A stretch of DNA of 24,224 nt, taken from positions 1-24,224 of IMG/VR virus record IMGVR_UViG_2548876940_000013. One strand, written 5' to 3'. Below, piece after piece: positions 4,886 through 24,224 of this stretch; the stretch's first letter is position 1, and each line of letters begins with the position of its first letter. A program made the translations under genes and the position numbers. This stretch comes from a virus (lineage: Duplodnaviria > Heunggongvirae > Uroviricota > Caudoviricetes). The notes below the pieces were generated by a model. It did not search any database. It saw only the letters and a program-made list of their open reading frames with translations, and had not been told where the DNA came from.

Positions 4886-4906
4886 GCCCTACAGGGGCTT
4901 AATAAT
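4879..4906. other. Perfect 11-bp stem hairpin spanning the convergent stop codons of the cargo cassette and Q
   Basis: ttattaagccc-taca-gggcttaataa. The stops of the 4301-4885 gene (+) and of Q (-) lie 3 nt apart inside this structure. No U-tract on either side. Confidence 0.4.
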
Positions 4907-5239: not shown

Positions 5240-5256
5240 CAACCTTCTCCACAAAA

Positions 5257-6252: not shown

Positions 6253-6253
6253 C

Positions 6254-7063: not shown

Positions 7064-7082
7064 ACTTCGTTTCTCCTCTTAA

Positions 7083-7472: not shown

Positions 7473-7795
7473 ACTTTCATGCCCCTCTTATGTAACCAGT
7501 GGGTTGCACGCAGCCTGGCGTTTTCCTCACCGGCAAGCAGTGCGCGGATAATCCCGACCGCCTCGCTGTCGTCGTCCTTGACCGCGGTATGAAGCGTTAT
7601 CCCCCGGGCCACACCACGCTTTATCGTGATGACGCCTTTTTTCTCCAGTGCGCGAAGATGCTCCACCGCTGCATTCACCGAACGGTATCCCAGCATGGTT
7701 GCCACCTCCTGATTGGTTGGCGGGAAGCCACGTTCTTTCTGATAAGAAATCAGCATATCCAGCACCTGCTGCTGGCATTGAGTTAACGTCGTCAT
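7469..7795 (-). CDS. LexA-like DNA-binding protein (N-terminal winged-helix domain only, no S24 peptidase domain)
   Basis: QQQVLDMLISYQKERGFPPTNQEVATMLGYRSVNAAVEHLRALEKKGVI parallels the LexA N-terminal domain, including the recognition-helix SxNAAxEHL pattern; the protein ends about 40 aa later. ATG at 7795 overlaps the upstream stop (TAATG). Confidence 0.7.
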   Translation of the reverse strand: MTTLTQCQQQVLDMLISYQKERGFPPTNQEVATMLGYRSVNAAVEHLRALEKKGVITIKRGVARGITLHTAVKDDDSEAVGIIRALLAGEENARLRATHWLHKRGMKV

Positions 7796-8283
7796 TACGC
7801 CCCCACGTAATTCCCTGACAGATACCACTCATCACTCGATACAGCGCGCTTGCTGCTTTTCCGTAAACACTGCTCACGACGCGCCAGAAAATTGTTTCGT
7901 TCTGGCTGGGAGTGGCTTTCACGGAATGCCGCCATCCACACCGTTGCAGCACGACGGTATAAGCCCCTTGACTCCAGTTCTTCAGCCTGGCGGGTCAGGC
8001 ACAAAATCACCCGGGGATCGTTAGTGCCGACATAGAAATTGCGCACAGGTCTGGTTTCACGAACTGGTTGTGGTTCCGGCTCCTGCGCTCTCTCAGTCAG
8101 GCGCGGGAAATGTCTGCGTGTATCTCCTTCACAACGGTGAGCCACACGCCCACTCTGACGTAACTTGCTTGCTGACTGCAGAACGCGCTGCCGTGAGTAA
8201 CCTGCAAAAGCATCCGCAATGTCTCCGGAAGTACACCCCGGATGGGCTTCAATGAATTTCTGAACTTCATTCAAAAGACTCAT
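7795..8283 (-). CDS. Hypothetical regulatory protein with a PerC-like C-terminal motif
   Basis: C-terminal GLYRRAATVWMAAF resembles the PerC-family signature as recalled. ATG at 8283 with SD aggggg. Confidence 0.4.
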   Translation of the reverse strand: MSLLNEVQKFIEAHPGCTSGDIADAFAGYSRQRVLQSASKLRQSGRVAHRCEGDTRRHFPRLTERAQEPEPQPVRETRPVRNFYVGTNDPRVILCLTRQAEELESRGLYRRAATVWMAAFRESHSQPERNNFLARREQCLRKSSKRAVSSDEWYLSGNYVGA

Positions 8284-8285
8284 AA

Positions 8286-9227
8286 TCACCCCCTGAATCC
8301 TGCCGGGATCTGGCTGTAGTCCACGTTGTCGTAACTGGCTTTGAAGTACGGGTCTTCACGTTTTTCTGTGTGCGTGCTGACGGACGGCGATAAGCGCAGG
8401 GAAAGCTCATCCCATTTTTCCCGCAACTTCGACGGGCTGAGCACGTTACGGCACCAGAACGGATCGCGGCTGACGCGGCTGTACATCTCGCAGATTTGTT
8501 TGTGAGTACGACCATCCTGCACACACATCAGGCGAATTTCGTTTGCCCAGGCTGTCCAGTTAGGTTCTTTGGGACGAACCACCTCGCCGTCACATTCGGC
8601 GGCCTGCTCGTACAGGGCGATGATTTTTTTCCAGAGCCACTGTGCGCAGGTCAAATCATCCTGCGTTCCCCACTGGCGCTTTTTAGGGCTGAATACAACC
8701 GCATCAGGATGGCGAGTTAAAAAATCCTGTTCATCCATCTGCGTGTCCGGTTGCGAAGCGTCCGGACGAGAAGGTTTTTTATCTGATGGATCATGTTTTG
8801 ATTTTACTGACGGATCCCCGCCAGATTCTGACGGGTGAAAACCCGCTTTTTTGCCAGATTTCGACGCATCAAATTTTGACGGGTCAGATTTTGATGCGTC
8901 AGATTTTGACGGGTCAGAATCTGACAGTTGAGAAAATGCCGCTGCCTGAAGCTTCGCAACGTTAAGCTGATAAACATTCGACGCATTGCGGTTACCCTGG
9001 CGACGCGCCTTACGCGTTAACCAGCCTTCTGCTTCCAGCCGTGCGATAGCCGTTCTGACGGTACTCATCCCCGCGCCAATCTGACGGGCAATGGTTTCAA
9101 TTGATGGCCAGCACACACCTTCGTCATTACTGAAATCAGCCAGGCGGGCCATAATTGCCACGCTGGATAACTTCATGCCTGATGCAGCGCAACCATCCCA
9201 TACATAGCCGGTTAATTTAGTGCTCAT
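8286..9227 (-). CDS. Phage replication initiation protein (winged-helix N-terminus, iteron-encoded linker, DnaT-like C-terminus)
   Basis: N-terminal HTH (WPSIETIARQIGAGMSTVRTAIARLEAEGWL). Central low-complexity repeat SDPSKSDASKSDPSKFDASK encoded by the iterons. C-terminal end SQIPAGFRG resembles the E. coli DnaT C-terminus as recalled. Confidence 0.7.
   Translation of the reverse strand: MSTKLTGYVWDGCAASGMKLSSVAIMARLADFSNDEGVCWPSIETIARQIGAGMSTVRTAIARLEAEGWLTRKARRQGNRNASNVYQLNVAKLQAAAFSQLSDSDPSKSDASKSDPSKFDASKSGKKAGFHPSESGGDPSVKSKHDPSDKKPSRPDASQPDTQMDEQDFLTRHPDAVVFSPKKRQWGTQDDLTCAQWLWKKIIALYEQAAECDGEVVRPKEPNWTAWANEIRLMCVQDGRTHKQICEMYSRVSRDPFWCRNVLSPSKLREKWDELSLRLSPSVSTHTEKREDPYFKASYDNVDYSQIPAGFRG
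8800..8927. repeat. Origin-of-replication iteron array inside the replication gene
   Basis: Seven copies of a roughly 15-bp unit (consensus agattttgacgggtc), four contiguous at 8871-8927 and three more at 8800-8870, with an adjacent AT-rich tract at 8771-8800. Confidence 0.7.
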
Positions 9228-9396
9228 GACCGACCTCTATTTCCCTGAATTTACGACGAAACTGTTCGAGCGGACTGAAGCATTCATGCTCATAACCTTC
9301 GCGGAGGTAGATAACCCGTTGTGTTTCCGGCTCCCAACGAATGACTCTGACGAGCACTCCGTAGTGATCTTTGAACCAGCGGTTAACTTGTCGCAA
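9217..9396 (-). CDS. Small hypothetical protein (59 aa, TTG start), alternative frame to the 9237-9575 ORF
   Basis: TTG at 9396 preceded by a strong SD aaggag with 8-nt spacing. Product ([40 protein letters not shown]...) looks protein-like. The stop overlaps the replication gene start. Confidence 0.3.
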
Positions 9397-9575
9397 AGGA
9401 CTGTCTCCTTCTGCCGGTTGAAATCACCCACAGCCCACTCTGCAAAGCTGTGGGTTACAATTTCCCTGTCACCTGGTACATTCACTGCATAGCAATATTC
9501 CACCTTCGCTTTTCCACCCGGTACAGGAAGCGCAATCAGTTGCGAGCGACGGTAGTGTGTTGTTAAACTGTTCAT
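9237..9575 (-). CDS. Hypothetical protein (112-aa ORF; the C-terminal half looks low-complexity and may be the wrong frame)
   Basis: ATG at 9575 with SD ggagaaa, overlapping the upstream stop (ATGA). The N-terminal 55 aa look plausible; the Ser-rich remainder overlaps the better-looking 9217-9396 frame. Confidence 0.35.
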
Positions 9576-10162
9576 GCGTTAGTTTCTCCACAACCAGAAG
9601 CAATCGACGCCACGACGCCCGGAGCTGCACACTCGCGGGCGTCATTACTTTCTGAAATGCAAAAAATTTTGTAGACAAGTGCTGCATGCTCCTGCAGCTT
9701 CGAAATTGAGAGATACAGCTCGTCGTTAATTGCTGTCTTCTCATGCGGTTCCACTACGCCGTCTTCGATTGCTGAACGAATCTGTTTTGAATAACTGCCG
9801 ATCTGTTCAATGACTTCCAGCAGACGCTGGTTAATATCGGCGTTGTCCACATCCTCGACGTCAGGAAGAGACACAAAGACGCCATTTGCAGACTGCGCCA
9901 CAGCATCAGCAATGAAGTGAGTGCCACCAGCACGCTGTAAAACCATTGCCCATCCCAGCGGGAAAATCTGATCGCCATCTGCACGAAGGCGGTTGAATAA
10001 AGCGTTCTCTGTTACATCCAGCCAGTCAGCGGCTTCAGCGTAACCCCCCGGCAACGCCGCGATAGTTTTTCTGACAGCTTTCACGTACCACTCAGGCTGT
10101 TTTTCTATTTTCCAGTGATGCTTACCCACGGCTATCTCCTTAAAACTGTGGTTACTTTTCAT
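9572..10162 (-). CDS. Hypothetical early regulatory protein (CII/YdaT-position)
   Basis: Occupies the slot after the cro-like gene. The track start (TTG 10234) overlaps the cro-like gene, so the ATG at 10162 is preferred. No motif recognised. Confidence 0.4.
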
Positions 10163-10400
10163 CTGATGAATCTTTAATCTTTTGAAAAATATCTGGACGT
10201 AATTTTTCTTTTGATATGCCAGTGGTCTTTTCAATGAATATCGAGAGCTTTGCAGGGGGACGCTTTTCTCTGTTCAACCAGTTCCAGACATGTTGTTGCT
10301 TTACTAAATGACCGCTGCTGGCTGTGAGCTTCCGAGCCAATTCTGATTGACCACCAGCCAGAGCGATTGCCTCCGATAAGGCTAATTGCTCAGGTGTCAT
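10152..10400 (-). CDS. Cro/YdaS-like HTH regulator
   Basis: 82 aa with the HTH ALAGGQSELARKLTASSGHLVKQQHVWNW. Strong SD aaggagaaa. Divergent from the CI-like repressor across an operator-containing spacer. Confidence 0.7.
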   Translation of the reverse strand: MTPEQLALSEAIALAGGQSELARKLTASSGHLVKQQHVWNWLNREKRPPAKLSIFIEKTTGISKEKLRPDIFQKIKDSSDEK

Positions 10401-10535
10401 AGCTTTCTCCTTTTTTGGTAGTTAAGTTGTTACGAGCTGCAAGAATACAACATTAACAACTTTTACCACAACTTTTAGGTGTTGGAAAGCTAAAACATAA
10501 AGTTGTAACCTCATCAAAAAAGAGAGGGATATGTT
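10401..10535. promoter_or_regulatory. OR-like divergent promoter/operator region between the cro-like and CI-like genes
   Basis: 135-bp spacer with repeated acaactttt units and the inverted copy aaagttgt (caacttttaccacaacttttaggtgttgg ... cataaagttgtaacc). Confidence 0.5.
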
Positions 10536-11222
10536 GTGAAAACACTGGCAGAACGATTAAAGATAGGTAGAGAGAAAGCTGGCATGAGCCAAGCTCAACT
10601 AGCTGAAAAAATTGGACTTTCACAACAATCTGTAGCCAAAATAGAGAATGGCGAAACTCTACAACCGCGCAAAATTAAAGAAATTGCAAAAGTTTTAGGT
10701 GTATCACAAAAGTGGTTACAACTTGGTATTGAAGACAACGCATCCATACCTGATCTTGTTGTAAAAGAAGCAGAAAGCACCGCATTAGACCCCGATATTT
10801 TCGTAAACATTCCTGTTTTAGATGTCGAGTTATCGGCAGGTAACGGATGTCTGGCTGAAATAGTTGAATCAGCTATTGACTGGTTTCCGTTAAGAAGAGC
10901 AGATTTGAGAAAATCTGGCGTATGTGCATCTAATGCCAAGATCGTACAAATATGGGGGAACAGTTTATTACCGGTTCTCAATAATGGAGATCTTGTTGCC
11001 GTTGATATTTCTCAAACCGTTCCTATTCGTGATGGCGATCTTTATGCCGTACGAGATGGTGTATTGCTAAGGGTTAAAATACTTATCAACTTACCTGACG
11101 GTGGCTTGATTCTTAGAAGCTTCAACAAAGATGAGTACCCAGATGAAATACTCACCTTTGAAGATAGACGAGCCAGAATTCATGTTATAGGTAGGGTATT
11201 CTGGTCATCGCGAACTTGGTAA
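10536..11222 (+). CDS. CI-like prophage repressor (XRE-type HTH plus S24 LexA-like peptidase domain)
   Basis: N-terminal HTH (MSQAQLAEKIGLSQQSVAKIENGE) and C-terminal S24 fold with Ser (GNSLLPV) and Lys (LRVKIL) in the expected places. GTG start with SD agagaggg. Confidence 0.85.
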   Translation: MKTLAERLKIGREKAGMSQAQLAEKIGLSQQSVAKIENGETLQPRKIKEIAKVLGVSQKWLQLGIEDNASIPDLVVKEAESTALDPDIFVNIPVLDVELSAGNGCLAEIVESAIDWFPLRRADLRKSGVCASNAKIVQIWGNSLLPVLNNGDLVAVDISQTVPIRDGDLYAVRDGVLLRVKILINLPDGGLILRSFNKDEYPDEILTFEDRRARIHVIGRVFWSSRTW

Positions 11223-12095
11223 TGCATCGAAAAGCATTTCTTCAGAAATAATTTTAAGTTTTGCACCATTATCATCCCTATAAGATATAGCCTTTTCGAT
11301 CTTCCTTCCGTGACTAGAGAATTTCCAATCACGGGAGGAAAGCGTCCCAATTACTAAAAAATCCAACTTTTGAGTAATTCCACTACTGATGTTCCCACCA
11401 GCATTTTTAATCAAATTTTCAACTACGGCTCTCTTTCCTGCAACAAAAGTGCCTGTAAGACAATAGGTTTTACCCTCTAACTCTATCGAAGCCCCTACAT
11501 CAATAGGCAGCCTGGTCGCCAAACCATCCACCACCCCACTTTCCAAGTCACATCCTGTGAAGTCTACTAATGCCTTATGTAGAGTTAAACTCTCATCTTC
11601 AGTAATAACACCATCTTTAAGAATTTCCTTTACAAGTGCATAAAGTTTTTTTCCTGGGTAGTTGTTCTTCAAAGCTCCATTTTGCTCAAGCCACCAATTA
11701 AGATATCTTATTTCTTCTTGAGTTAAGTTCCGATCAGCAATTAATCCTTTACATAGTCCATTAAGTAAATGGACATCTACATCCTTGGAGTAAAAATCAA
11801 TTTCAGGGATATCAAGAATTTCCCTCTGTATTTGGAGAAGACTATTTTTAAGGTCATCACGTTCTTCTGATGTGATTATTCCATCCACAAGAATATCCGA
11901 CACCCGTGCAGATAGACTTTTTATAACTCCATTATTGATAATCTGCTTTGCTTCAAGTAACCATGTATCTAAGTAAAGAACCTCCTCTTCACGGACAACT
12001 CCATCTGCAATGATTCCATCAATGATGCTAATCAAGTTAGCAAATAACTTGTCCCGGTTCTGTGTGTAATTAAAAGCGTAAAGCGCGTCTTCCAT
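11205..12095 (-). CDS. TerB-like-repeat / BRCT-domain protein in the immunity region (candidate exclusion/defence factor)
   Basis: C-terminal BRCT signature GKTYCLTGTFVAGKRAVVENLIKNAGGNISSGITQKLDFLVIGT...KLKIISEEMLFDAL, as in the LigA BRCT. N-terminus has four repeats of about 38 aa with the motif [IL]xDG[IV][IV]TxEE. ATG at 12095 with SD aaggagg; track start is GTG 12125. Confidence 0.7.
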   Translation of the reverse strand: MEDALYAFNYTQNRDKLFANLISIIDGIIADGVVREEEVLYLDTWLLEAKQIINNGVIKSLSARVSDILVDGIITSEERDDLKNSLLQIQREILDIPEIDFYSKDVDVHLLNGLCKGLIADRNLTQEEIRYLNWWLEQNGALKNNYPGKKLYALVKEILKDGVITEDESLTLHKALVDFTGCDLESGVVDGLATRLPIDVGASIELEGKTYCLTGTFVAGKRAVVENLIKNAGGNISSGITQKLDFLVIGTLSSRDWKFSSHGRKIEKAISYRDDNGAKLKIISEEMLFDALPSSR

Positions 12096-12300
12096 ACAAC
12101 CTCCTTTTTTTGATAATCCTTGCACTCCTTGGCTACTCGTTCAAACCACATAAAGTTGTTGACAACATTCAAAACCACAACTAAATTACAACTTAAAGGT
12201 GTTAAGACAACGAACAGGCAGGACGCCCACGAAGTAGCCGCTTGGGGCATATGAAGTCCAGGATGATTCGTTGAGTCATGTTGTGCCACTAGGCACTCAT
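12096..12300. promoter_or_regulatory. OL-like operator/promoter region (candidate pL driving + strand early-left genes, with a divergent promoter for the BRCT gene)
   Basis: Contains the near-palindrome aaagttgttgacaac and the motif acaacttaaaggtgtt, which match the units in the cro/cI spacer. Confidence 0.4.
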
Positions 12301-12319
12301 GTTAAAGCAGGTGTATGAA

Positions 12320-12595
12320 ATGAAAGTCCAGATTTTAAACAATAACTGTGAAGTCGTTTGGTCATACGACATAGCCGCCCCTGTAGATCAGAGCGGCGAT
12401 AGCTGGACCAATGGGAAACATCAGATTATGGCTGGAGTTGTGTTCTCTTTACGCCGTGCTTTGGAACAGGCTGAAGTATTTCCATCAGACCCTGAATGGA
12501 AATGGCCTTTTTCTATTTGTCCAAATTCGGAGAGCACATTTCAGAAAATTGGTCAGAAAGTCGCACTCGAAGAGCATCAGCCAACTGTTTCCTGA
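12320..12595 (+). CDS. Hypothetical early-left protein
   Basis: ATG at 12320 with SD aggtg; the track start at 12299 has no SD. The 3-prime end overlaps a - strand ORF, so one of the two may be spurious. Confidence 0.4.
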   Translation: MKVQILNNNCEVVWSYDIAAPVDQSGDSWTNGKHQIMAGVVFSLRRALEQAEVFPSDPEWKWPFSICPNSESTFQKIGQKVALEEHQPTVS

Positions 12596-12758
12596 TTTTT
12601 TCAGGTAACTCGTCGGCATCGCAGAAACAACAACGCTCGATCATGTTGAAAGCCGATTCGTAGAACTGTTTCTGCTGAGTGTCGCTGAGACAGGAAAAGA
12701 GCGACGTTACGATGATTTTATTAATTGCATTATCAAATTCTTTTTCATCAAAAGTCAT
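12513..12758 (-). CDS. Hypothetical small protein
   Basis: 81-aa ORF with SD aaggaaa before the ATG. Product looks protein-like (acidic, Cys motif CCFCDADE). Confidence 0.35.
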   Translation of the reverse strand: MTFDEKEFDNAINKIIVTSLFSCLSDTQQKQFYESAFNMIERCCFCDADELPEKIRKQLADALRVRLSDQFSEMCSPNLDK

Positions 12759-13011
12759 TTGATTTTCCTTTTATGTATACGGGCTTAAAAGGATACCACC
12801 GAGCCTGAAGTGGTGAAAAGACAGGCACATAACAGCTAAGTATTTTCAACCAAAGAGAATCCTTAGCGTTGTGGTGAATGCGGCTCAGCGCACGCGGGTT
12901 AAGGTTGAGGCTGACAGTCGACCTTCTGTGGATACCCACCCGCCTGGTGTGCAACCTTCGCCAGGCACCGGGAGGCACCCGGCACCACAACTTTATGCTG
13001 TGTGTAGTCTT

Positions 13012-13068
13012 GGCGGTACCAGCTTGTACCCTTGCTTCCGGCTGGTACCGTCCTTTTTACAAAACAGA
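13012..13068 (+). terminator. Strong hairpin with a downstream T-run (candidate early-left terminator/attenuator)
   Basis: 10-bp stem cggtaccagc / gctggtaccg around a 17-nt loop, followed by tcc-ttttt. Lies in a GC-rich stretch with no convincing ORF. Confidence 0.4.
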
Positions 13069-13195
13069 GAAGAGCATCACCGGACGACGGGCTCATAACC
13101 CAATCCATCCGGGCGGCGGCCACCACAAGTGTTCTTCTCTGTTTTGTGGAGAAACTAATAGGCCTTGCAGGGTCGATATGATGAGGAGCAGCAAA

Positions 13196-13558
13196 ATGGC
13201 TAGCGAACGCAGTACTGATGTACAGGCATTTATCGGGGAGCTGGACGGCGGCGTATTTGAAACCAAAATCGGCGCAGTTCTCAGTGAAGTCGCTTCCGGT
13301 GTGATGAACACGAAAACCAAAGGTAAGGTCTCGCTCAACCTGGAAATTGAACCATTTGATGAGAACCGTGTGAAAATCAAACACAAACTCTCATATGTTC
13401 GCCCGACTAACCGCGGGAAAATTTCCGAAGAAGACACTACCGAAACGCCGATGTATGTCAATCGCGGTGGTCGCCTGACTATTCTGCAGGAAGACCAGGG
13501 ACAATTACTGACTCTTGCCGGTGAACCTGACGGAAAACTCCGCGCAGCAGGTCGTTAA
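13196..13558 (+). CDS. YfdP-like phage protein (120 aa)
   Basis: ATG at 13196 with SD gaggag. The longer track ORF from 12878 runs through the structured leader and is not credible. Size and position upstream of YfdQ/YfdR-like genes match the CPS-53 arrangement as recalled. Confidence 0.55.
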   Translation: MASERSTDVQAFIGELDGGVFETKIGAVLSEVASGVMNTKTKGKVSLNLEIEPFDENRVKIKHKLSYVRPTNRGKISEEDTTETPMYVNRGGRLTILQEDQGQLLTLAGEPDGKLRAAGR

Positions 13559-13623
13559 TATCGTTCTTAATAAACTGATTATTTATCTCATCACTGAATA
13601 TCTTTGTATAGTGAGGACTTATT

Positions 13624-14448
13624 ATGTCTCAGAACTTAGACGCAACCGCAATTAATCAAATCCATGCCCTTATTTCTGCTCAGGGTGTTAATGAAATTAT
13701 CAGTAAGATTGGTGCCGACGCAGTGGCGTTACCTGAAAATTTCCGCATTCATGATCTGGAAAAATTTAATTTAAATCGCTTCCGTTTCCGTGGCGCGCTT
13801 TCCACTGCCAGCATCGATGACTTTACCCGTTATTCTAAAGATCTTGCAGATGAGGGCACCCGCTGCTTTATCGATGCTGATAATATGCGTGCCGTCAGTG
13901 TGCTTAACCTGGGTACTATTGATGAACCAGGTCACGCAGATAACACCGCCACTCTCAAACTGAAAAAGACAGCACCGTTCTCTGCTCTGTTGTCTGTTAA
14001 TGGCGAGCGTAACCCCCAGAAATCACTGGCAGAATGGATTGAAGACTGGGCCGACTACCTTGTGGGCTTTGATGTTAATGGTGACATCATTCAGGCAACA
14101 AAAGCGGCTGCGGCGGTCCGTAAAATCACGATTGAAGCAAACCAGACCGCTGATTTTGAAGATAATGACTTCAGCGGAAAACGCTCCCTGATGGAGTCTG
14201 TCGAAGCGAAGACCAAAGACATTATGCCAGTGGCATTTGAATTTAAATGCGTTCCGTTTGAAGGCCTGAAAGAACGTCCGTTTAAATTACGCCTCAGCAT
14301 TATCACTGGCGATCGTCCTGTACTGGTACTACGCATTATTCAGTTGGAAGCAGTGCAGGAGGAAATGGCTAACGAATTTCGTGATCTGCTTGTTGAGAAA
14401 TTCAAAGACAGCAAAGTAGAAACCTTTATTGGTACTTTCACCGCCTGA
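13624..14448 (+). CDS. YfdQ-like (DUF2303) phage protein
   Basis: 274-aa ORF with SD gagg. Length and neighbours match CPS-53 yfdQ as recalled. Confidence 0.6.
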
Positions 14449-14460
14449 TTTCATTACTGC

Positions 14461-14483
14461 AAATGCCCCTGCGGGGGCATTTG
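14461..14483 (+). other. Hairpin downstream of the YfdQ-like gene
   Basis: aaatgcccc-tgc-gggggcattt, a 9-bp stem with no clear U-tract. Confidence 0.3.
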
Positions 14484-14576
14484 TGGAAACGTAATTGACT
14501 CAATAATCGCCTGATGGCGAGGGTTTTCTTTAACCAAAATTCAGCGCGGTGCAGCGCATATAACGTGGAGAACAAA

Positions 14577-15113
14577 ATGTCATTTATTAAAACTTTTTCC
14601 GGGAAGCATTTTTATTATGACAGGATAAATAAAGACGACATCGTTATTAACGATATCGCGGTTTCCCTTTCAAATATCTGTCGCTTTGCAGGACATCTTT
14701 CACACTTCTACAGCGTCGCCCAACATGCGGTGCTTTGCAGCCAGCTGGTACCGCAGGAATTTGCTTTTGAAGCGTTAATGCATGATGCAACAGAAGCGTA
14801 TTGTCAGGACATCCCCGCTCCACTGAAACGCCTTCTTCCTGACTATAAACGGATGGAAGAAAAAATAGACGCCGTAATCCGTGAGAAATACGAGTTACCC
14901 CAGGTTATGAGTACGCCTGTGAAATATGCCGATCTCATCATGCTGGCAACCGAACGCCGCGATCTCGAGCTAGATGATGGCTCTTTCTGGCCTGTACTGG
15001 AAGGTATCCCGGCAACAGAGATGTTCAAAGTTATTCCTCTAGCTCCTGGCCATGCCTACGGGCTGTTTATGGAGCGTTTTAAAGAGCTGCATAAGATACA
15101 TAAGCAATCCTGA
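14577..15113 (+). CDS. HD-domain phosphohydrolase (YfdR-like 5-prime-deoxynucleotidase)
   Basis: HD-domain metal-binding pattern (H...HD within SVAQHAV ... LMHDATEAY). ATG at 14577 with SD gtggag gives 178 aa; the track start at 14514 is upstream. Confidence 0.75.
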   Translation: MSFIKTFSGKHFYYDRINKDDIVINDIAVSLSNICRFAGHLSHFYSVAQHAVLCSQLVPQEFAFEALMHDATEAYCQDIPAPLKRLLPDYKRMEEKIDAVIREKYELPQVMSTPVKYADLIMLATERRDLELDDGSFWPVLEGIPATEMFKVIPLAPGHAYGLFMERFKELHKIHKQS

Positions 15114-15168
15114 CAGCGAAATTAACTAGTGAAATAGTTTTGTAGCAAAAGAAATGAGGTTATCAAAA

Positions 15169-15414
15169 ATGCTTCAAATGCTGACACTTGAGGAATGGGC
15201 TGCGGAAAAATTTAGGAGTAATCCTCCAAGTGTGTCCACATTGCGCCGTTATGCTAAGCAGAATTTATTTTGTCCACCGGCAATGAAACAAGGTCGACTA
15301 TGGCGAGTGCGTGAGGACGCAGAGTTAGTTGGGGAATTAGTTACCCCTGTCATCAAGAAAAGTGATTCTATTATTCTACAAAGGATTTTAAGTAATGGCA
15401 GCCAGACCACGTAA
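15169..15414 (+). CDS. xis: Excisionase (lambda Xis-like)
   Basis: MLTLEEWAAEKFRSNPPSVSTLRRYAKQNLFCPPAMKQGRLWRVRED parallels lambda Xis (MYLTLQEWNARQRRPRSLETVRRWVRECRIFPPPVKDGREY). The 3-prime end overlaps the int start. Start could be 15154, 15169 or 15178. Confidence 0.75.
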   Translation: MLQMLTLEEWAAEKFRSNPPSVSTLRRYAKQNLFCPPAMKQGRLWRVREDAELVGELVTPVIKKSDSIILQRILSNGSQTT

Positions 15415-16522
15415 AAATAATGTTTCAGTCCCGAACTTGTATCCGCTCTATAGCAGAAAAGTAAATAAAGTCTATTGGCGATATAAGCATCCAGTGACCG
15501 GGAAGTTTCATTCTTTGGGCACAAACGAAGCTGAAGCCATTGCCATTGCCACTGAGGCCAATACACGCCTGGCTGAGCAAAGAACCCGGCAGATTCTGGC
15601 TATCAGTGACAGGATCGCAACCAACAAAGGAAAAGCAATCACAACGTCAACCTGGTTAGATCGCTATCAAGCAATCCAGGATGACAGACTGAAAAGTGGC
15701 GATATAAAGCTCAACACCTATAAACAGAAAGCCAAACCAGTATCCTTGCTCAGGGAACGAGCAGGACTGAAGTTAATTTCAGCCGTTGATGTCAGGGATA
15801 TAGCCCAGTTGCTTGACGAGTATATCGCCGCCGGACAGCCGAGAATGGCGCAAGTAGTTCGCTCCGTCCTGATTGATGTTTTCAAAGAGGCACAGCACTA
15901 CGGAGAAGTACCTCCTGGCTATAACCCGGCATTAGCTACTAAACAGCCAAGAAGAAAAATTACACGACAGCGGCTAAGTCTTGAAGAATGGCAAAAAATC
16001 TTTGATATCGCAGATGCCAGTCATCGCTACATGGGAAATGCCATGCTGCTAGCATTGGTTACTGGTCAGCGGTTAGGTGATATTTCACGTATGAAATTTA
16101 GCGATATTTGGGATGATCATCTTCACGTCATCCAGGAAAAAACCGGGAGCAAAATCGCCATCCCGCTTTCTCTTCGTCTCAACGCGATTAACTGGAGTTT
16201 ACGCGATGTAGTCGCCCGCTGCCGTGACTATGCAGTCAGCCCATACCTTGTACATTTTTTCCGTACTACTTCACAAGCTGAACGTGGCGCGCAGGTTAAA
16301 TCCAATACATTGACCATGAATTTCAGTAAAGCGAGGGATTTAGCAGGAATTGACTGGGGTGATGGCTCACCCGCAACATTCCATGAACAAAGGTCTTTAT
16401 CTGAACGTCTGTACAAAGAACAGGGGTTAGACACACAAAAACTGCTTGGTCATAAAACGCAACAACAAACCGATCGTTATCATGACGATCGCGGCAAAGG
16501 ATGGAGCAAAGTAGCGTTGTGA
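15395..16522 (+). CDS. int: Lambda-family tyrosine integrase
   Basis: 375 aa collinear with lambda Int: arm-binding N-terminus (NLYPLYSRKVNKVYWRY), ALVTGQRLGDISRMKFSDI, KTGSKIAIPLS, and the C-terminal HEQRSLSERLY...LLGHK...YHDDRG with the catalytic Tyr region. Confidence 0.95.
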   Translation: MAARPRKNNVSVPNLYPLYSRKVNKVYWRYKHPVTGKFHSLGTNEAEAIAIATEANTRLAEQRTRQILAISDRIATNKGKAITTSTWLDRYQAIQDDRLKSGDIKLNTYKQKAKPVSLLRERAGLKLISAVDVRDIAQLLDEYIAAGQPRMAQVVRSVLIDVFKEAQHYGEVPPGYNPALATKQPRRKITRQRLSLEEWQKIFDIADASHRYMGNAMLLALVTGQRLGDISRMKFSDIWDDHLHVIQEKTGSKIAIPLSLRLNAINWSLRDVVARCRDYAVSPYLVHFFRTTSQAERGAQVKSNTLTMNFSKARDLAGIDWGDGSPATFHEQRSLSERLYKEQGLDTQKLLGHKTQQQTDRYHDDRGKGWSKVAL

Positions 16523-16699
16523 AATTTTAAACGTCTCAACGCCACCTTGATTTTCTCACCACACATGAAAAAGAACCAAACAGCCCGCTTTGAGCGACAA
16601 GCGGAAATTAACATATCTGTTAAAGTGGCCAAATTTAGCTATCCACTACAGTCAGAATGTAGCATACAACATTCATTTTTTTGATAATGTCGCAATTTA

Positions 16700-16735
16700 G
16701 GATTGGAAAAGAGGCTTATCTGTATAAACCTCTTC
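16700..16735 (-). terminator. Candidate terminator downstream of the TIR gene
   Basis: Short stem (aagagg / cctctt) just after the stop of the 16745-19213 gene, followed on the - strand by a moderately T-rich run. Confidence 0.25.
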
Positions 16736-16744
16736 CTATATTAA

Positions 16745-19213
16745 CTATGATTTAGGTAAGTACTGTTTTAGTTTGTCAATAAATTGATCGATCTCTGCAG
16801 AAGTGAGTTCTGTTAGCTCACGTTTGCATATACCTACTGCCTCATCAAATCTCGAAGTTAAAGTTAACCAAATAGCTTTAAACCTTATAAAACTGCCGTA
16901 TGTTTGAGATTTAGGTGAATCAGTTTTTTCAAGAATTCCAATAGCATACTCTAATTTATCAATTCTTTTATATTGTATAGCTAGGTCACAGAGCGTTAAA
17001 ACAGGATATTTTATATCAGGAAAGTCCATGATCCCATTTTCAATTAGGGTAAATGATTCATCAACTTTATTATCAAACCTAGCAAGTGCCTTAGCTTTGG
17101 CGGAGCAATAAATTTCCTGTGCGCGTTGGGCTTGATTCGATTTTAGTCGTTCAAGTATATCCTCTACTAAACCTGGTTCAATATGTGAATCATCCTTGTA
17201 AAAAAGGCAGTTTAAATAATTATTAGCATTTATTGGATTATTTTTCTGCCTTTCATAAACTTCCTTCGCCAATCCCAAAGCAAGTTCGTGCTCATCATTC
17301 TGTAAATACAACAATACCAGTTCACTTTTTGAACGGTGGTCATTAGGTCTTTGCCTTAAAACTCGCTTATAGCTCTCAATTGCCCGAGAACGTTGGCGTG
17401 TTATTCTAAAATAAAAACCATGCAGGAATGAACTTTCTGGTTCAGGAACATCTCGTACCGCATTAAAAAACTCTCGATCATGCAGTCTTGCTAGAGACTG
17501 GCATTTCATAAATAATATGTGTTCTATAACATTTGAATGCATATATTGAGCATTTGAAAGAATCTGATCAGCTAATCTCACAGCTTCTTTATAGTTCGCA
17601 GATCCACCTTTTTCGTATAATGATCTTATTGTTTTTACAAAATATGAAGGAACTAACACTCGACTATCTATATCTTTACCGGTTTTTATAGCCTCCTGAA
17701 TGGAGAAAATATATTCCGAAATATCCCTATTGTTGTCTGTATATTCTTCAATGAACTTCTTAATATGCTTACTCAAAACATCATCATATTCACTGGTGGT
17801 TCCAAACTTACTTCTTGATATGTAATCCTGTATTACTTGGTTTACCCTGATATAATCATTATTCACACCTAATTGATCACATACAGACATATTGATGAAG
17901 TTTTGCGTAATTGGATAAAACTCCACTTCATCTACTAATGAAAAAAGGAACTCATAGCTAATGAATTCAAATTTTGAAAGGAAATATAAAAAATCTAACT
18001 TACGCTGATCATGGGAAAAACTTTCAACTATTACTTTTGCCTTATCATCAGCATATTCTCTTATTAAATGTGAATCTTTTTTCACTGAATAAAGGTTCGT
18101 ATCCGATATACTATCCACGGCAAAAAGAACTTGCTCTGGATAACCCGAAAGTAGGTCTGAGAAAAAACGCAGATCTTCAGGGCATAAATCTAAACCTTTA
18201 TATGTTGCATATCTTTTCAAAAGCCCTCGTCTTTCTTGAGTATTCAATTCAGGAATTTCTTCAAAGTAATACTCTGGATTTCTATAAGAAAATGTTTTAT
18301 TACCTCTAAACTTAGATGCTATACAGAAAGTCAAGTGACCATAATGTTTAATATGATCTGTAATCCTTACAAACCAACTTACAATTGTACTATCAGGTTG
18401 AACTATAGCTCCTTTATCTTCAATTAGGATTCGTTCTTTTTCTTCTATAATTCCTTCTATAAGCTTTACCGCAATATTAACTTTATCACTTATTGAAGTG
18501 GTCATTAAATCATGAATTTTACCAATATCGCATAAGCCAAGATCATTTATTTTTAAGATAAAGTCTTCTATACTATCTGAAGACTCGATTTGTATTATAG
18601 GAAATTCATAAGACTCTCTTATAGCATTAGATTTTATAAGAGCGTTCTTCATAAAAGATTTACGGCCAATTGAATCCAAACCTGAAGCAATAAAAACTAC
18701 AGGAGGAGATTTATCAAAGTCATCAAAACGTTGCTCAACGTTAGTCGTTTTCTCATTTCTACCCACAAATATTTTTTGTCTTTCTTTCAATGCAGGATGG
18801 GTTTTAAATGCAATCTCTCGTAGTCGAGCATTAATTTTTCTAATTGCAACGTTAGGCTTCCGAATTGGCTGAATATTAAAACCTTCCTTCATCCAGGATG
18901 GGACCCTTGGATCTGTAAAAGTTATTTTGTCATCTATTATAATTGGATAAATACGTTGCAGATGACCATCCTCTACTTTTTTCTTTGCTAAGCGCATTTC
19001 CTCTTTAACCCAATCAGACTCTAATGCAGAATCAGAAAGAAATAAAACAAAAAGAGATGTATCATCTAGCCCCTTTAATATTTCCTCTGATGGGGACATG
19101 CCTTTTTCAAAAGTCTGCTCATCGAAAATTCTAGTTTCTTTGCGAAGCCCTGAAGCAACAACTCGTACATAGTCCTTGTCTTTTGAACTATGTGAAAGAA
19201 AACATTTTATCAT
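16745..19213 (-). CDS. TIR-domain protein with a central NTPase-like region and C-terminal TPR-like repeats (STAND/NLR-like antiviral candidate)
   Basis: N-terminal TIR motifs (CFLSHSSKDKDYV; LFVLFLSDSALESDWVKEE with a candidate catalytic Glu). Middle region with a degenerate P-loop (FIASGLDSIGRKS) and a Walker-B-like ERILIED about 75 aa later. C-terminal roughly 300 aa of helical TPR-like repeats. Visibly AT-rich; sits between int and the icd-derived arm. Confidence 0.8.
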   Translation of the reverse strand: MIKCFLSHSSKDKDYVRVVASGLRKETRIFDEQTFEKGMSPSEEILKGLDDTSLFVLFLSDSALESDWVKEEMRLAKKKVEDGHLQRIYPIIIDDKITFTDPRVPSWMKEGFNIQPIRKPNVAIRKINARLREIAFKTHPALKERQKIFVGRNEKTTNVEQRFDDFDKSPPVVFIASGLDSIGRKSFMKNALIKSNAIRESYEFPIIQIESSDSIEDFILKINDLGLCDIGKIHDLMTTSISDKVNIAVKLIEGIIEEKERILIEDKGAIVQPDSTIVSWFVRITDHIKHYGHLTFCIASKFRGNKTFSYRNPEYYFEEIPELNTQERRGLLKRYATYKGLDLCPEDLRFFSDLLSGYPEQVLFAVDSISDTNLYSVKKDSHLIREYADDKAKVIVESFSHDQRKLDFLYFLSKFEFISYEFLFSLVDEVEFYPITQNFINMSVCDQLGVNNDYIRVNQVIQDYISRSKFGTTSEYDDVLSKHIKKFIEEYTDNNRDISEYIFSIQEAIKTGKDIDSRVLVPSYFVKTIRSLYEKGGSANYKEAVRLADQILSNAQYMHSNVIEHILFMKCQSLARLHDREFFNAVRDVPEPESSFLHGFYFRITRQRSRAIESYKRVLRQRPNDHRSKSELVLLYLQNDEHELALGLAKEVYERQKNNPINANNYLNCLFYKDDSHIEPGLVEDILERLKSNQAQRAQEIYCSAKAKALARFDNKVDESFTLIENGIMDFPDIKYPVLTLCDLAIQYKRIDKLEYAIGILEKTDSPKSQTYGSFIRFKAIWLTLTSRFDEAVGICKRELTELTSAEIDQFIDKLKQYLPKS

Positions 19214-19747
19214 TTGAAGTCCTTTTTTTTCATTTTAGGGAGCAAATGCCATATTTGTACTTTACATCTTTCGAGAGCAGGCGAAAAGCTGTGTAACTTT
19301 CCCATATAATTCTGACACTTATAGTAAAAAATGTTTGTGAATATTGATCTTTATCACATATTCCCTGTTTCTTTGTTACTCACTTACTGCGAGCTTGTAT
19401 CTCGACGTATGGTTTTAGATTCTCATTTAGTTGCTAAAAATAGACTGAAGCAACTGTAACTTAGAGTGCGTACAGTCAAGAATCCCCGCTGGCGGGCAAC
19501 AACTTTTGACAACTCACTCCCATCACCAACTGACGGACCGGTTCCCGGTTGATTAACACATTGTGATGTCAGCAATCTCCGCTCACAGCACAAAGCAGCC
19601 AACTACAACGCCGTAAGGCAATTTTGAGCGAGGAGCGGAAGCTGGCAATAGAACTACCATCTGACCGACCAACCTACCCCGAACTACCAGGGGGTTTTGA
19701 TAACTTATTTTGATAAAATTTTGATAACCGTTAGCAGGCTAACAAAA

Positions 19748-19780
19748 AACAACGGGCGTGTTATACGCCCGTTATAATAT
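19748..19780 (-). terminator. Rho-independent terminator of the icd 3-prime arm
   Basis: Stem aacgggcg / cgcccgtt with a 7-nt loop, followed on the - strand by gttttttgtt, beginning about 17 nt after the icd-fragment stop. Confidence 0.6.
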
Positions 19781-19796
19781 TTAACACATGTGGTAA

Positions 19797-19958
19797 TTAC
19801 ATATTTTCGATGATCGCGTCACCAAACTCTGAACATTTCAGCAGCTTAGCGCCTTCCATCAGACGTTCGAAGTCATAGGTTACGGTCTTCGCGTTGATTG
19901 CGCCTTCCATACCTTTAACAATCAGGTCTGCGGCTTCAGTCCAGCCCATATGGCGCAG
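19797..19958 (-). pseudogene. icd: Orphan 3-prime fragment of isocitrate dehydrogenase (icd): phage-borne attachment-site arm, as in phage 21/e14
   Basis: - strand translation [53 protein letters not shown] matches the Icd C-terminus as recalled. An in-frame stop lies immediately upstream (19980-19982) and no upstream frame encodes Icd. Confidence 0.8.
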
Positions 19959-19979
19959 CAGCATTAATATATGCCTCAT

Positions 19980-20405
19980 TCATAAAATGTAAAAGAGCAA
20001 GCTCGTACCAGTAGGGGGAAAATTCATTGACATGTCCTGTCAATACGTACAGAGCCCTGCCATGCTTGCCAGCACGTAACAATTCCGCCCCCAGTAACCA
20101 GCGTGTCCCCTGATTATTCTCAGGGTTATATGTTAGTATTTTATCAATGAGTATAACGGCATCCTGATGACGCTGTAAATGAACATTCGCCAGAATTGCA
20201 GCATAAAGAGCGCAAATGCATATGCCAGATGAGCGTGAATATCAATGATGTCAGGAGCATGTCTGGCAAGACGCCTGAGTTTGTTGACGTAATTTGTTTC
20301 GTTTATTTCATCACTATCGTATGCGTCAAGAGTTTTTTCAAATTCATCCCGAAATGGGCCAAGCCTGGTTTCAGGAAATAAGAAATACCCCTGGTTATTG
20401 TTCAC
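19980..20405 (-). pseudogene. Decayed ORF of unknown origin
   Basis: A 90-aa ORF (GTG start) and the following segments read protein-like in one - strand frame, interrupted by three stops before running into the icd fragment. Confidence 0.3.
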
Positions 20406-21113
20406 TTAAAAGTATAATTTGTAATTCAAATCCTGAGTCTGTAAAGCGGGGAGTAACATATTCTATTCTGAAGATAATAAAAGTCGTGATGCGATGTATC
20501 AAGCCCGGATTGTAATCCCAGATTAACATAGATCACAAAACAACTTATTCTTCACTAACGTCAAGATAAATATCGTTGTATGCCTTATCACGACTACGAA
20601 TACCAGCAAGATACAACTGACATACGGAAAGATACCACGTTTTTTACTCCCGAAAATAACGCTAAAAAGCTACTTCCCCATCGTTTGTCCTTAGTATTGT
20701 CAGCGCCAACAATGTGGGCTGACATGATAAAGCTGTCTAGGAAATTGTTCGCCTCCTCAGCGGACAATCCAAATGGTGATTGTCTCTGTTAAACGTTTAT
20801 TTTGAAGGTCACTGAATAAGGTGATGACGCTGTAGAATTTTTCACGTGCCACAGAATTTTGAACGCTTTCTCTTACAATATTTCAATGTTTCTATCAGTA
20901 TTCGCCGGAAGAAGTCATCGACCAAATCATCCCAGTCGTCTCGCACCACTGACCATTCATGGTTGACATGTGGTGGAAATCCGCTTCTACAGTAACCATT
21001 TTTTATTCGCAAAACCGAACACGCCATACGGATAGCTGTTAACTGGCATGCCGAGGCAGTCGTTATTTATATTTAGTTTTGTCAATAATCTTTATTTTTT
21101 GTAAAAGGCAAAT

Positions 21114-21132
21114 ATAAATTATTCTCATTATT
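21114..21132 (+). promoter_or_regulatory. Candidate Fur box upstream of the TonB-dependent receptor gene
   Basis: ataaattattctcattatt matches the 19-bp Fur consensus gataatgataatcattatc at 12 of 19 positions, best in the right half. About 50-70 bp upstream of the ATG. Confidence 0.3.
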
Positions 21133-21183
21133 GTTTGTATTTGTGTATTGTCTTGCCGGTTAACATGATCGGAGATTAGTAAT

Positions 21184-23274
21184 ATGCGAATAACCACTCT
21201 GGCTTCCGTAGTCATTCCCTGTCTCGGATTTTCAGCCAGCAGCATAGCTGCTGCAGAGGATGTGATGATTGTCTCGGCATCCGGCTATGAGAAAAAGCTG
21301 ACTAACGCAGCCGCCAGTGTTTCTGTGATTAGCCAGGAGGAATTGCAGTCCAGCCAGTACCACGATCTGGCGGAGGCTCTGAGATCAGTAGAGGGTGTGG
21401 ATGTTGAAAGTGGTACGGGTAAAACCGGAGGGCTGGAAATCAGCATCCGAGGAATGCCAGCCAGTTACACGCTGATACTGATTGATGGTGTTCGTCAGGG
21501 CGGAAGCAGTGACGTGACTCCCAACGGTTTTTCTGCCATGAATACCGGGTTCATGCCCCCTCTGGCCGCCATTGAGCGTATTGAGGTTATCAGAGGGCCG
21601 ATGTCCACACTGTATGGCTCTGATGCGATGGGCGGTGTGGTGAATATCATTACCAGAAAGAATGCAGACAAATGGCTCTCTTCCGTCAATGCAGGGCTGA
21701 ATCTGCAGGAAAGCAACAAATGGGGTAACAGCAGCCAGTTTAATTTCTGGAGCAGTGGTCCCCTTGTGGATGATTCTGTCAGCCTGCAGGTACGCGGTAG
21801 CACACAACAGCGTCAGGGTTCATCGGTCACATCACTGAGCGATACAGCAGCCACGCGTATTCCTTATCCCACGGAGTCACAGAATTATAATCTTGGTGCA
21901 CGTCTTGACTGGAAGGCGTCGGAGCAGGATGTGCTCTGGTTTGATATGGATACCACCCGGCAGCGTTATGATAACCGGGATGGGCAACTGGGGAGTCTGA
22001 CGGGGGGATATGACCGGACCCTGCGCTATGAGCGAAACAAAATTTCAGCTGGCTATGATCATACTTTCACCTTCGGAACATGGAAATCGTATCTGAACTG
22101 GAACGAGACAGAAAATAAAGGTCGTGAGCTTGTACGCAGTGTACTGAAGCGCGACAAATGGGGGCTTGCCGGTCAGCCGCGGGAGCTTAAGGAATCGAAC
22201 CTTATCCTGAATTCATTACTGCTTACCCCTCTGGGAGAATCTCATCTGGTTACGGTGGGGGGCGAGTTTCAGAGCTCGTCCATGAAAGACGGAGTTGTCC
22301 TTGCCAGCACAGGTGAAACTTTCCGGCAGAAAAGCTGGTCGGTATTTGCTGAGGATGAGTGGCATCTCACGGATGCACTTGCGCTGACTGCGGGCAGCCG
22401 CTATGAACATCATGAGCAATTCGGGGGACACTTCAGTCCGCGTGCATATCTGGTCTGGGATGTGGCAGATGCCTGGACGCTGAAAGGCGGTGTGACCACG
22501 GGATATAAGGCACCCAGAATGGGGCAGCTACATAAAGGGATTAGTGGTGTGTCCGGGCAGGGAAAAACAAATCTACTTGGTAACCCCGACCTGAAGCCGG
22601 AAGAGAGCGTCAGTTATGAGGCTGGGGTGTATTACGATAACCCCGCCGGTCTGAATGCCAATGTCACAGGTTTTATGACTGACTTCTCCAACAAGATTGT
22701 CTCTTATTCCATAAATGATAACACCAATAGCTATGTAAACAGCGGAAAGGCCCGGTTGCACGGTGTGGAATTTGCCGGCACATTGCCGCTGTGGTCAGAG
22801 GATGTCACGCTGTCACTGAATTACACCTGGACCCGAAGTGAACAACGTGATGGTGATAACAAAGGTGCGCCGCTGAGTTATACCCCTGAACACATGGTGA
22901 ATGCGAAACTGAACTGGCAGATCACCGAAGAGGTGGCATCATGGCTGGGTGCCCGTTATCGCGGGAAAACACCACGTTTCACCCAGAATTATTCGTCACT
23001 GAGCGCTGTACAGAAGAAAGTGTATGATGAGAAAGGAGAATACCTGAAAGCCTGGACGGTGGTGGATGCAGGTCTGTCGTGGAAGATGACGGATGCCCTG
23101 ACGCTGAATGCTGCGGTGAATAACCTGCTCAACAAGGATTACAGTGACGTGAGCCTGTACAGTGCCGGTAAGAGTACGCTGTATGCCGGTGATTACTTCC
23201 AGACGGGATCATCAACAACAGGATATGTGATACCTGAGCGAAATTACTGGATGTCGCTGAACTATCAGTTCTGA
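21184..23274 (+). CDS. iha: TonB-dependent outer-membrane siderophore receptor, Iha/IrgA-like
   Basis: 696 aa. Signal peptide, TonB-box-like EDVMIVSAS, plug and beta-barrel, C-terminal ...NYQF ending in Phe. SD ggag 9 nt upstream. Length and N-terminus match Iha as recalled; the symbol is tentative. Confidence 0.85.
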   Translation: MRITTLASVVIPCLGFSASSIAAAEDVMIVSASGYEKKLTNAAASVSVISQEELQSSQYHDLAEALRSVEGVDVESGTGKTGGLEISIRGMPASYTLILIDGVRQGGSSDVTPNGFSAMNTGFMPPLAAIERIEVIRGPMSTLYGSDAMGGVVNIITRKNADKWLSSVNAGLNLQESNKWGNSSQFNFWSSGPLVDDSVSLQVRGSTQQRQGSSVTSLSDTAATRIPYPTESQNYNLGARLDWKASEQDVLWFDMDTTRQRYDNRDGQLGSLTGGYDRTLRYERNKISAGYDHTFTFGTWKSYLNWNETENKGRELVRSVLKRDKWGLAGQPRELKESNLILNSLLLTPLGESHLVTVGGEFQSSSMKDGVVLASTGETFRQKSWSVFAEDEWHLTDALALTAGSRYEHHEQFGGHFSPRAYLVWDVADAWTLKGGVTTGYKAPRMGQLHKGISGVSGQGKTNLLGNPDLKPEESVSYEAGVYYDNPAGLNANVTGFMTDFSNKIVSYSINDNTNSYVNSGKARLHGVEFAGTLPLWSEDVTLSLNYTWTRSEQRDGDNKGAPLSYTPEHMVNAKLNWQITEEVASWLGARYRGKTPRFTQNYSSLSAVQKKVYDEKGEYLKAWTVVDAGLSWKMTDALTLNAAVNNLLNKDYSDVSLYSAGKSTLYAGDYFQTGSSTTGYVIPERNYWMSLNYQF

Positions 23275-23302
23275 TAATAACAAAACGCTATCACTGACGG
23301 TA

Positions 23303-23341
23303 GAATACGTTGCCACTGCAACTCCTGGCGGAACAGTGGCA
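23303..23341 (+). other. 12-bp stem hairpin downstream of the receptor gene
   Basis: acgttgccactg-caactcctggcggaa-cagtggcaacgt. No strong U-tract. Confidence 0.3.
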
Positions 23342-23491
23342 ACGTATTAGGTTAAGTGCATTTCCGATCCGCTAATGAGATTTCGTTACCAACAACTAAT
23401 ATCGTCACAGGAAATGCACGGATTATTTTTAACTTATCATTTACATACTTGTCCAGAGTGTAAGCGCACCGTGAAGGACGTGGGGTAAAAA

Positions 23492-23745
23492 TTAGTTTAC
23501 AGAGAGAGTGACGTTCCAGGGCAACAACTCTTTCATGCGGTTGGCAGGCCAGGTGTTGATTACACTGATCACGTGGCGTAGCCACGTTTCCGGCTCGATT
23601 CCGTTAAGTTTTGCAGCTACCGATCAGGCTGTACATCACTGCCGCACTATCGCTCGTCATCTCAAAGTCCGGTCTCGTCAGCAGGAAGGTATCATTCTCT
23701 CCCGCCATTTTTCCAGGGGCCCGGTCAGATAAGTCCCTTTGTCTA
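23492..23745 (-). pseudogene. Frameshifted C-terminal remnant of a transposase (IS66-family-like, tentative)
   Basis: Two adjacent - strand frames read ...DTFLLTRPDFEMTSDSAAVMYSLIGSCKT and NGIEPETWLRHVISVINTWPANRMKELLPWNV, joined only by a frameshift. The LLPWN-type C-terminus recalls IS66 transposases. Confidence 0.35.
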
Positions 23746-24224
23746 TCGCTGACTCCTGACTCATAACCCGGTTAGCAGAATGCAGGGTCACCACCTCGCC
23801 ACGACCGAATCCGAATAAGTCAATTGTACCTTCTCAATCGCCATTTTGTCACAATTAAGTTTGATAAAGCAGGTCACCTCTGCACTGAATCTGCTCCAGT
23901 GCCTCATTGGTTTCCGTCCCCCCCTTTAAACTGCCGGATAAGACTGCTGCACAGCGCCTTCCCCGGAATCAAATCACTTTCCCTGTCCGCCACAATCCGC
24001 TTCATGCCACCTCGTATTTTGTTTCAGAGACCGAAATCTGCCAGAAAGTGACTACGCGTGCACATATCGGTTTTCTGGGTTACATGCATCGTGTTATTTT
24101 CTGAAATGCAAAATAATAAAAAACAAGGACACATAATGAAGGATGAAATACACAGTACCAGCATCAACCGTAAGCGTACAGCGAGGGCCGTATTGACGGG
24201 GATGTGTTATTCAGCTGGCAGTGC

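Follow-up and report, generated by a model that had tools for sequence, protein, structure and literature searches.

How does a gene for an outer membrane siderophore receptor come to lie next to the end of a prophage? The question is raised by the IMG/VR virus record IMGVR_UViG_2548876940_000013 (Caudoviricetes), whose positions 1 to 24,224 are here called the window. The original prediction, made from the sequence alone, described an Iha-like siderophore receptor/adhesin gene beyond a prophage arm ending in icd-like sequence, with a Fur-box-like sequence before it and an IS66-like transposase remnant after it, and suggested an island either juxtaposed with the prophage end or assembled around it. 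Our analysis indicates that the open reading frame (ORF) is iha, carried by a fragment of a common island, and that its adjacency to the prophage very probably arose by recombination of the phage's own integrase at a secondary attachment site (pseudo-attB), the simplest form of which would be insertion of the phage into the island.

The iha gene and its product

The region 21061..23745 contains a single long ORF:

21184..23274 (+): iha coding sequence, 696 amino acids plus stop codon, ATG start (ORF list, profile search and protein comparison)

Its identity and domains were established directly. The product matches the NCBIfam equivalog model NF010012 (PRK13486) along the entire length (residues 1-696 on profile positions 1-696) with 1618.1 bits against a cut-off of 924, and this Iha model is the only one whose cut-off is passed, the models for CfrA, IreA, CirA, FepA, BtuB and Fiu all remaining below threshold (327 against 745 for CirA, and 272 against 493 for the FepA family). 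Two Pfam domains were found, Plug (PF07715, residues 40-152, E=5.5e-28) and TonB-dependent beta-barrel (PF00593, residues 220-648, E=9.2e-68). The protein agrees at 696/696 residues with the product of iha in E. coli O157:H7 EDL933, the EDL933 record being scored by AMRFinderPlus as 100% iha, and it shares 695/696 residues with the iha product of an ST69 strain of extraintestinal pathogenic E. coli (ExPEC); identical DNA carries the RefSeq name 'bifunctional siderophore receptor/adhesin Iha'. The ORF is iha itself, rather than an Iha-like relative, and the original prediction of a 696-residue TonB-dependent receptor with the N-terminus of Iha holds. As read from the translation, the precursor has a signal peptide at approximately residues 1-23 (MRITTLASVVIPCLGFSASSIAA), a mature start AEDVMIVSAS..., a TonB-box-like EDVMIVSA at residues 25-32, and a C-terminus ...NYQF with a terminal aromatic residue.

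Iha shares the Plug and beta-barrel domains, the TonB box and, according to the literature, Fur-controlled expression with receptors of the CirA/FepA/IrgA type. A housekeeping receptor in a conserved chromosomal context would, by the original prediction's own account, have spoken against it. For an ordinary receptor of the CirA, FepA or Fiu type one could cite the closest solved structure, the colicin I receptor CirA (2hdf, E=2.5e-78, full-length alignment), and the several catecholate-receptor models that match below threshold. However, the Iha equivalog alone is above its cut-off, with the CirA and FepA models far under theirs, and 71% of the complete E. coli genomes lack iha, which is found in insertion sequence (IS)-rich islands or on plasmids. 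On these two grounds the housekeeping receptor was rejected, and its probability is practically negligible. Compared with CirA and FepA, Iha is a separate equivalog, horizontally acquired, for which adhesin activity is reported in the literature. Among 5426 complete E. coli genomes, 1575 carry iha with its promoter, 1386 records showing an identity of 99% or more.

As a marker of virulence, Iha is standard for STEC (Shiga toxin-producing E. coli) and ExPEC. The gene, its control by Fur and the IS-littered island are already textbook knowledge, and finding iha again adds nothing new on any of them. As to function, both siderophore specificity and adhesin activity are taken here from the literature: the passages concerned in PMC12200846, PMC6313751 and PMC3064760, citing Tarr 2000 and Leveille 2006, assign to Iha catecholate siderophore uptake and adherence. 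From what is established for the receptor family and for iha, the precursor would be exported by means of its signal peptide to the outer membrane and form a plugged beta-barrel there. Powered by TonB via the N-terminal TonB box, the receptor would import ferric catecholates, namely enterobactin and the products of its breakdown, and it would additionally promote adherence to epithelial cells.

In a separate observation on EDL933, the record NZ_CP124741.1 ('plasmid unnamed2', 286,775 bp) bears the terZABCDE cluster together with iha, which according to the literature are chromosomal content of OI-43/48 in this strain; the replicon is probably mis-assigned or mis-assembled in PLSDB.

The island fragment carrying iha

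The iha gene lies on DNA that belongs to a known island backbone:

19958..24224: fragment of the iha-island backbone, left side cut at the junction (comparison with H3, HSP425 and NCTC9082)

Along its 4267 bp this fragment is 100% identical to the DNA of E. coli H3, HSP425 and NCTC9082, and the island types sharing it at 100% are those of H3, NCTC9082 and O55:H7. The backbone is of the OI-43/48, LPA/LAA and PAI-pheV class and is widely distributed. The right end of the contig is the edge of another IS66 fragment; in genomes with the same right flank (the H3/O55:H7/NCTC9082 type) fragments of IS66, ISEc43 and ISEc45 follow and then espI, which is the order of the LPA/LAA-type arrangement (PMC6920203; PMC7545054). 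The iha islands of EDL933 (OI-43/48), of uropathogenic E. coli and of the LPA and LAA types have the same protein (100% to EDL933), promoter block, downstream hairpin and IS66 remnant. Compared with these known islands there is no difference in the gene; the difference is that the backbone in the window is cut 1226 bp upstream of it and joined to a prophage arm.

In H3, O55:H7, ST69, EDL933 and O104:H4 the backbone has one and the same flank, which extends to the left beyond the breakpoint, the half that is missing from the window reading ...TCGAAATGCCGTT. As it continues in this way in all other genomes examined, the island, judged by sequence comparison, is older than the joint and was cut later, and was not built around the phage end. 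Of the two arrangements proposed in the original prediction, juxtaposition with the prophage end was thus borne out, and assembly around it was not; the distance of about 1.2 kb between the icd arm and the receptor proved to be 1226 bp (from 19957 to 21184). More generally, a virulence gene beside a prophage end need be neither phage cargo nor part of a phage-built island.

Two consecutive short ORFs (90 and 48 amino acids) occupy 19936..20405 on the minus strand and extend across the junction into island DNA. They look like pieces of one decayed gene; RefSeq annotates nothing at 19936..20405, where Pfam gave noise only. Since these ORFs cross the junction, the pseudo-attachment site appears to lie in a pseudogene. 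For the short ORFs between the junction and iha no credible Pfam match was obtained.

The junction between the prophage and the island

Positions 1..19957 form the left arm of a lambdoid prophage of the e14/phage-21 type. The features and sites at the joint are as follows:

19797..19957 (-): icd', a substitute 3' end of icd brought by the phage, within the P' arm of the prophage (attP region of phage 21, 96% identical; phage 21 annotation)
19950..19964: recombinant attachment core ATGGCGCAGCAGCAT (in-register comparison of attachment sites)
Window junction: ATGGCGCAGCAGCAT/TAAT
Uninterrupted island site: ATGCCGTTGCAGCAT TAAT
Attachment site attB in icd: ATGGCGCAGCATCAT
Attachment site attP of phage 21: ATGGCGCAGCAGTAT

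The phage side of the joint reads ...CAGTCCAGCCCATATGGCG. Within the core, bases 19953 and 19956-57 are of the phage type, GCAGCAT (19958-19964) is common to phage arm and island, and from 19965 on the sequence is that of the island only. With strain G47-1 and phage 21 as references for the attachment sites, the switch point in the window was found to coincide with the nucleotide at which phage 21 attP leaves homology to icd, and with the nucleotide at which attL and attR of the normal lysogen G47-1 diverge. The island site ATGCCGTTGCAGCAT and icd attB ATGGCGCAGCATCAT are identical at 11/15 positions. The pattern of phage and target bases would fit an overlap of 7 bp around CGCAGCA (19954..19960); because attP was taken only from phage 21, the exact overlap is one that we infer.

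A second case was found by protein look-up. A junction ORF of 60 amino acids gave no match, and a junction-spanning ORF of 55 amino acids led to another assembly with the same phage arm, GCA_016660085.1. In this assembly (DADCCD010000030.1, 9990..10020) an arm 99.79% identical to that of the window is fused with the 3' end of a nanS-p-like (SASA-family) esterase gene, which lies just upstream of the DUF1378/holin/lysozyme lysis cassette of a different lambdoid prophage; it has the look of a prophage that integrated into a second one. The uninterrupted esterase partner reads ATGCCGTAGCAGCAT (partner locus 3001..3015) and is identical to the island site ATGCCGTTGCAGCAT at 14/15 positions, the similarity between the two partners being confined to this motif. 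By chance, a 5-Mb genome should contain approximately 0.04 copies of a motif in which 14 bases are specified, and each partner locus has one copy, exactly at the breakpoint. The two joints differ in one detail: at 19956-57 the window retains the CA of the phage, whereas in the second case the first of the two bases is T, as in its target.

Origin of the junction

What the island is, where exactly the break falls and how similar the partner sites are follow directly from these comparisons; from them we infer that the integrase made the joint, since two unrelated partners share an attB-like 15-mer at the point of joining. The iha gene resides on a decayed, IS66-littered piece of common island backbone. 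In the proposed sequence of events, the prophage's own e14/phage-21-type integrase, whose normal site is icd, would have recombined at a pseudo-attB in this backbone, 1226 bp upstream of iha. In the simplest form the phage would have integrated into the island.

Several points weigh against this explanation. First, the source is a draft assembly. Second, megablast with the junction-spanning sequence against the complete E. coli genomes gave no match covering both sides, and the exact 35-bp junction was found in none of the IMG/VR records, species-representative genomes and metagenome contigs. Third, the far end of the prophage lies outside the contig, and simple insertion and integrase-mediated inversion or deletion fit the window alike. 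Finally, as noted above, the attP reference comes from phage 21 only.

The first two points would agree with an assembly chimera, the prophage really residing in icd and the island elsewhere. The window is the entire 24,224-bp contig of the draft assembly (AIAU01000050.1, GCA_000446445.2), repeated DNA is present at both contig ends, and the junction is found in 0 of the 5426 complete genomes and is missing from the viral, species-representative and metagenome collections. However, the sequence common to the two sides is just 7 bp long (GCAGCAT), too little to mislead an assembler, and the switch falls exactly on the attachment core, with a partner that resembles attB. Moreover, the contig is listed for two samples, and the second assembly has the same kind of joint at a near-identical 15-mer in unrelated DNA. 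Repeat-driven misassembly was rejected on account of the short shared sequence of 7 bp and the independent assembly with a like joint, and we regard a chimera as very unlikely.

The order of int, icd', core and other DNA is also that of an unintegrated phage, so that an attP-type layout has to be considered, in which iha would be cargo of the phage b region, comparable to sitABCD in phage 21, or part of a specialised transducing derivative. In phage 21 sitABCD adjoins attP, and ExPEC commonly carry elements that are integrated at icd and have the Sit system (PMC7545054). Yet the DNA to the right of the core is the middle of the island backbone, which extends to the left in all other genomes and is full of IS66 debris, and the break falls on a pseudo-attachment motif native to the island. 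The joint in GCA_016660085.1, where the same arm meets the lysis region of another prophage, is impossible as a b region, and no phage record matches past the core. The adjoining DNA being island interior with IS debris, phage b-region cargo was rejected; such a layout is highly improbable.

Another reading is a rearrangement, an inversion or deletion between an icd-resident prophage and the island, made either by the integrase with attL and the pseudo-site as its substrates or by illegitimate recombination at microhomology, with truncation of icd. The junction sequence is equally compatible with such an event, and the contig lacks the 5' part of icd: no joint to it is found in the window, which is island DNA from 19958 on. 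A rearrangement of this kind would inactivate icd, however, and icd is intact beside the prophage in all other genomes seen; furthermore, purely illegitimate recombination leaves unexplained why two independent partners share a motif at 14/15 positions. We consider rearrangement unlikely, and between an integrase-mediated rearrangement truncating icd and simple insertion into the island the latter is favoured.

Phage lambda is known to integrate at secondary sites, giving prophages at unusual chromosomal positions when attB is unavailable. By analogy, the lambda cases resemble the window in having the joint at the core and partner sites partly similar in the core to one another and to attB; they differ in the integrase and core concerned, and the usage of the site in the window is deduced from two natural genomes. 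The secondary-site joint is the sole non-routine element of this locus: an event of a kind known for lambdoid integrases, met here in a natural strain near a virulence gene. The two joints would be natural examples of an icd-specific integrase acting at a look-alike site, which bears on the calling of prophage boundaries and on gene mobilisation. A bolder extension, to which we give little credence, is that the e14/phage-21 integrase family has a defined, recurrent pseudo-attachment motif (ATGCCGTNGCAGCAT) in virulence islands and other prophages, so that, with an apparently complete int-xis arm 1.2 kb from iha, imprecise excision could lead to packaging and transduction of iha, and the arm could also promote island rearrangement; if true, this would provide a phage route for the spread of the adhesin/receptor gene.

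Regulation of iha

The region before the gene contains a conserved block and, within it, a candidate operator:

~21076..21183 (+): conserved iha promoter and leader block (alignment of EDL933, ST69, O104:H4 and pO113 types)
21114..21132: candidate Fur operator ATAAATTATTCTCATTATT, 52-70 bp before the iha ATG (13/19 to the 19-bp consensus, and conservation)

The sequence ATAAATTATTCTCATTATT is the best match upstream of iha, where the original prediction had noted a Fur-box-like sequence; it agrees with the consensus GATAATGATAATCATTATC at 13/19 positions on the minus strand (plus strand, 12/19). Approximately 0.09 chance matches at this level (at least 13/19) are estimated for the ~125 bp upstream of the gene. 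What tells against the match is that the AT-rich 24-kb window contains 17 such matches, both strands counted, and that 13/19 is not significant alone.

The block 21076..21183 is nearly invariant across the EDL933, ST69, O104:H4 and pO113 types, pO113 diverging before ~21070, and the ST69-type promoter is near-identical to that in the window. Although the pO113 iha subtype is only ~90% identical overall, the motif 21114..21132 has a single substitution there. This 19-mer is favoured as the putative operator because it lies 52-70 bp ahead of the ATG and is conserved among the subtypes. A simple scan for the sigma-70 consensus upstream of iha found no plus-strand promoter, and no -10 or -35 elements were assigned.

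Control by Fur is drawn from publications on other strains. Iron represses iha via Fur, as PMC6313751 puts it in citing Rashid 2006; chromatin immunoprecipitation sequencing in CFT073 places iha in the direct Fur regulon (PMC7157518); and in O157:H7 transcription of iha is promoted by iron limitation (PMC3064760). A Fur-type operator is the likely regulator of iha also in the window. In the presence of iron, Fe2+-Fur would occupy an operator in the conserved promoter block, for which 21114..21132 is the best candidate, and upon iron limitation iha would be transcribed.

On the opposite strand, an ORF of 60 amino acids (21063..21245, minus strand) is antisense to the iha promoter and start and spans the Fur-box region. 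It is named 'hypothetical protein' in RefSeq (WP_000922604/606) and is probably a spurious call.

Sequences downstream of iha

Two features follow the gene:

23304..23348 (+): perfect hairpin with a 15-bp stem, 30 nt past the iha stop codon (folding with 200 shuffles)
23495..23771 (-): frameshifted C-terminal remnant of an IS66-family transposase, TnpC (Pfam, reading frames and RefSeq label)

The arms of the hairpin are AATACGTTGCCACTG ... CAGTGGCAACGTATT, and its minimum free energy is -30.1 kcal/mol (z = -3.76; as stable in 0/200 shuffles). It has no T-tract and the terminator scan gave no call at this position; it is a probable transcript-end structure. An Rfam scan of 19000..24224 gave no match.

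The transposase remnant, which the original prediction had correctly recognized as a frameshifted IS66-like C-terminus, is on the minus strand and converges on the 3' end of iha. The frame 23495..23623 matches PF13817 (IS66 C-terminal element) with E=4.3e-13, the preceding part of the transposase being in a different frame (23607..23771, minus strand) and reading ...SDSAAVMYSLIGSCKT. At the same spot in identical DNA RefSeq has 'transposase domain-containing protein; frameshifted; incomplete; missing N-terminus'. Only ~45-90 C-terminal codons are left over the two frames; a complete IS66 (tnpA, tnpB, intact tnpC and inverted repeats) is not present, and the neighbouring frames had no Pfam match. 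The piece is debris and no active element.

The prophage arm

Between the start of the excisionase gene and icd', the following features were identified:

15154..15414 (+): excisionase (PF07825 Exc; RefSeq homologue name xisE)
15395..16522 (+): tyrosine integrase of the e14/21 type, 375 amino acids (PF09003 Arm-DNA-bind_1 and PF00589 Phage_integrase; RefSeq homologue intE)
16745..19213 (-): TIR-NLR-type defence gene, 822 amino acids (PADLOC TIR-NLR, E=4.2e-167, full length; PF13676 TIR_2)
19695..19727 (+): three direct repeats of TTTTGATAA, candidate arm-type integrase sites (repeat count)

The integrase and excisionase, the icd' end and the core are of the same type as in e14 and phage 21, which reside at icd; in the window the arm is instead joined to the pseudo-attB of the iha island (11/15 to attB), and the TIR-NLR gene occupies the cargo slot that separates int from the attachment arm. 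In all other genomes found with the same prophage and TIR cargo, the arm adjoins an intact icd of 416 amino acids. The exact TIR-NLR allele was not found in RefSeq complete E. coli genomes, the best match being ~92% identical.

Of the repeat TTTTGATAA the window contains 6 copies, where 0.56 would be expected. A cluster of three lies between the TIR gene and icd' with a spacing of 11-13 bp, and further single copies are found just after int (16679..16687, plus strand) and near xis (15160..15168, minus strand). They may be arm-type binding sites of the integrase. Their sequence differs from YYTTCCCCAAAA, the consensus annotated for phage 21.

Phage 21 itself (OL657228.1) encodes sitA and sitB for iron/manganese transport at 5133..6223, ~2 kb from attP, in agreement with the 'PAI-icd with Sit system' that PMC7545054 lists for many ExPEC strains. 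Phages that integrate at icd do carry iron-uptake cargo, yet the window shows a different case. In related prophages the same slot between int and the attachment arm holds other defence-like genes, for an AAA ATPase, a KAP NTPase, HEPN/Toprim, a Kiwa KwaB-like protein and a TPR protein.

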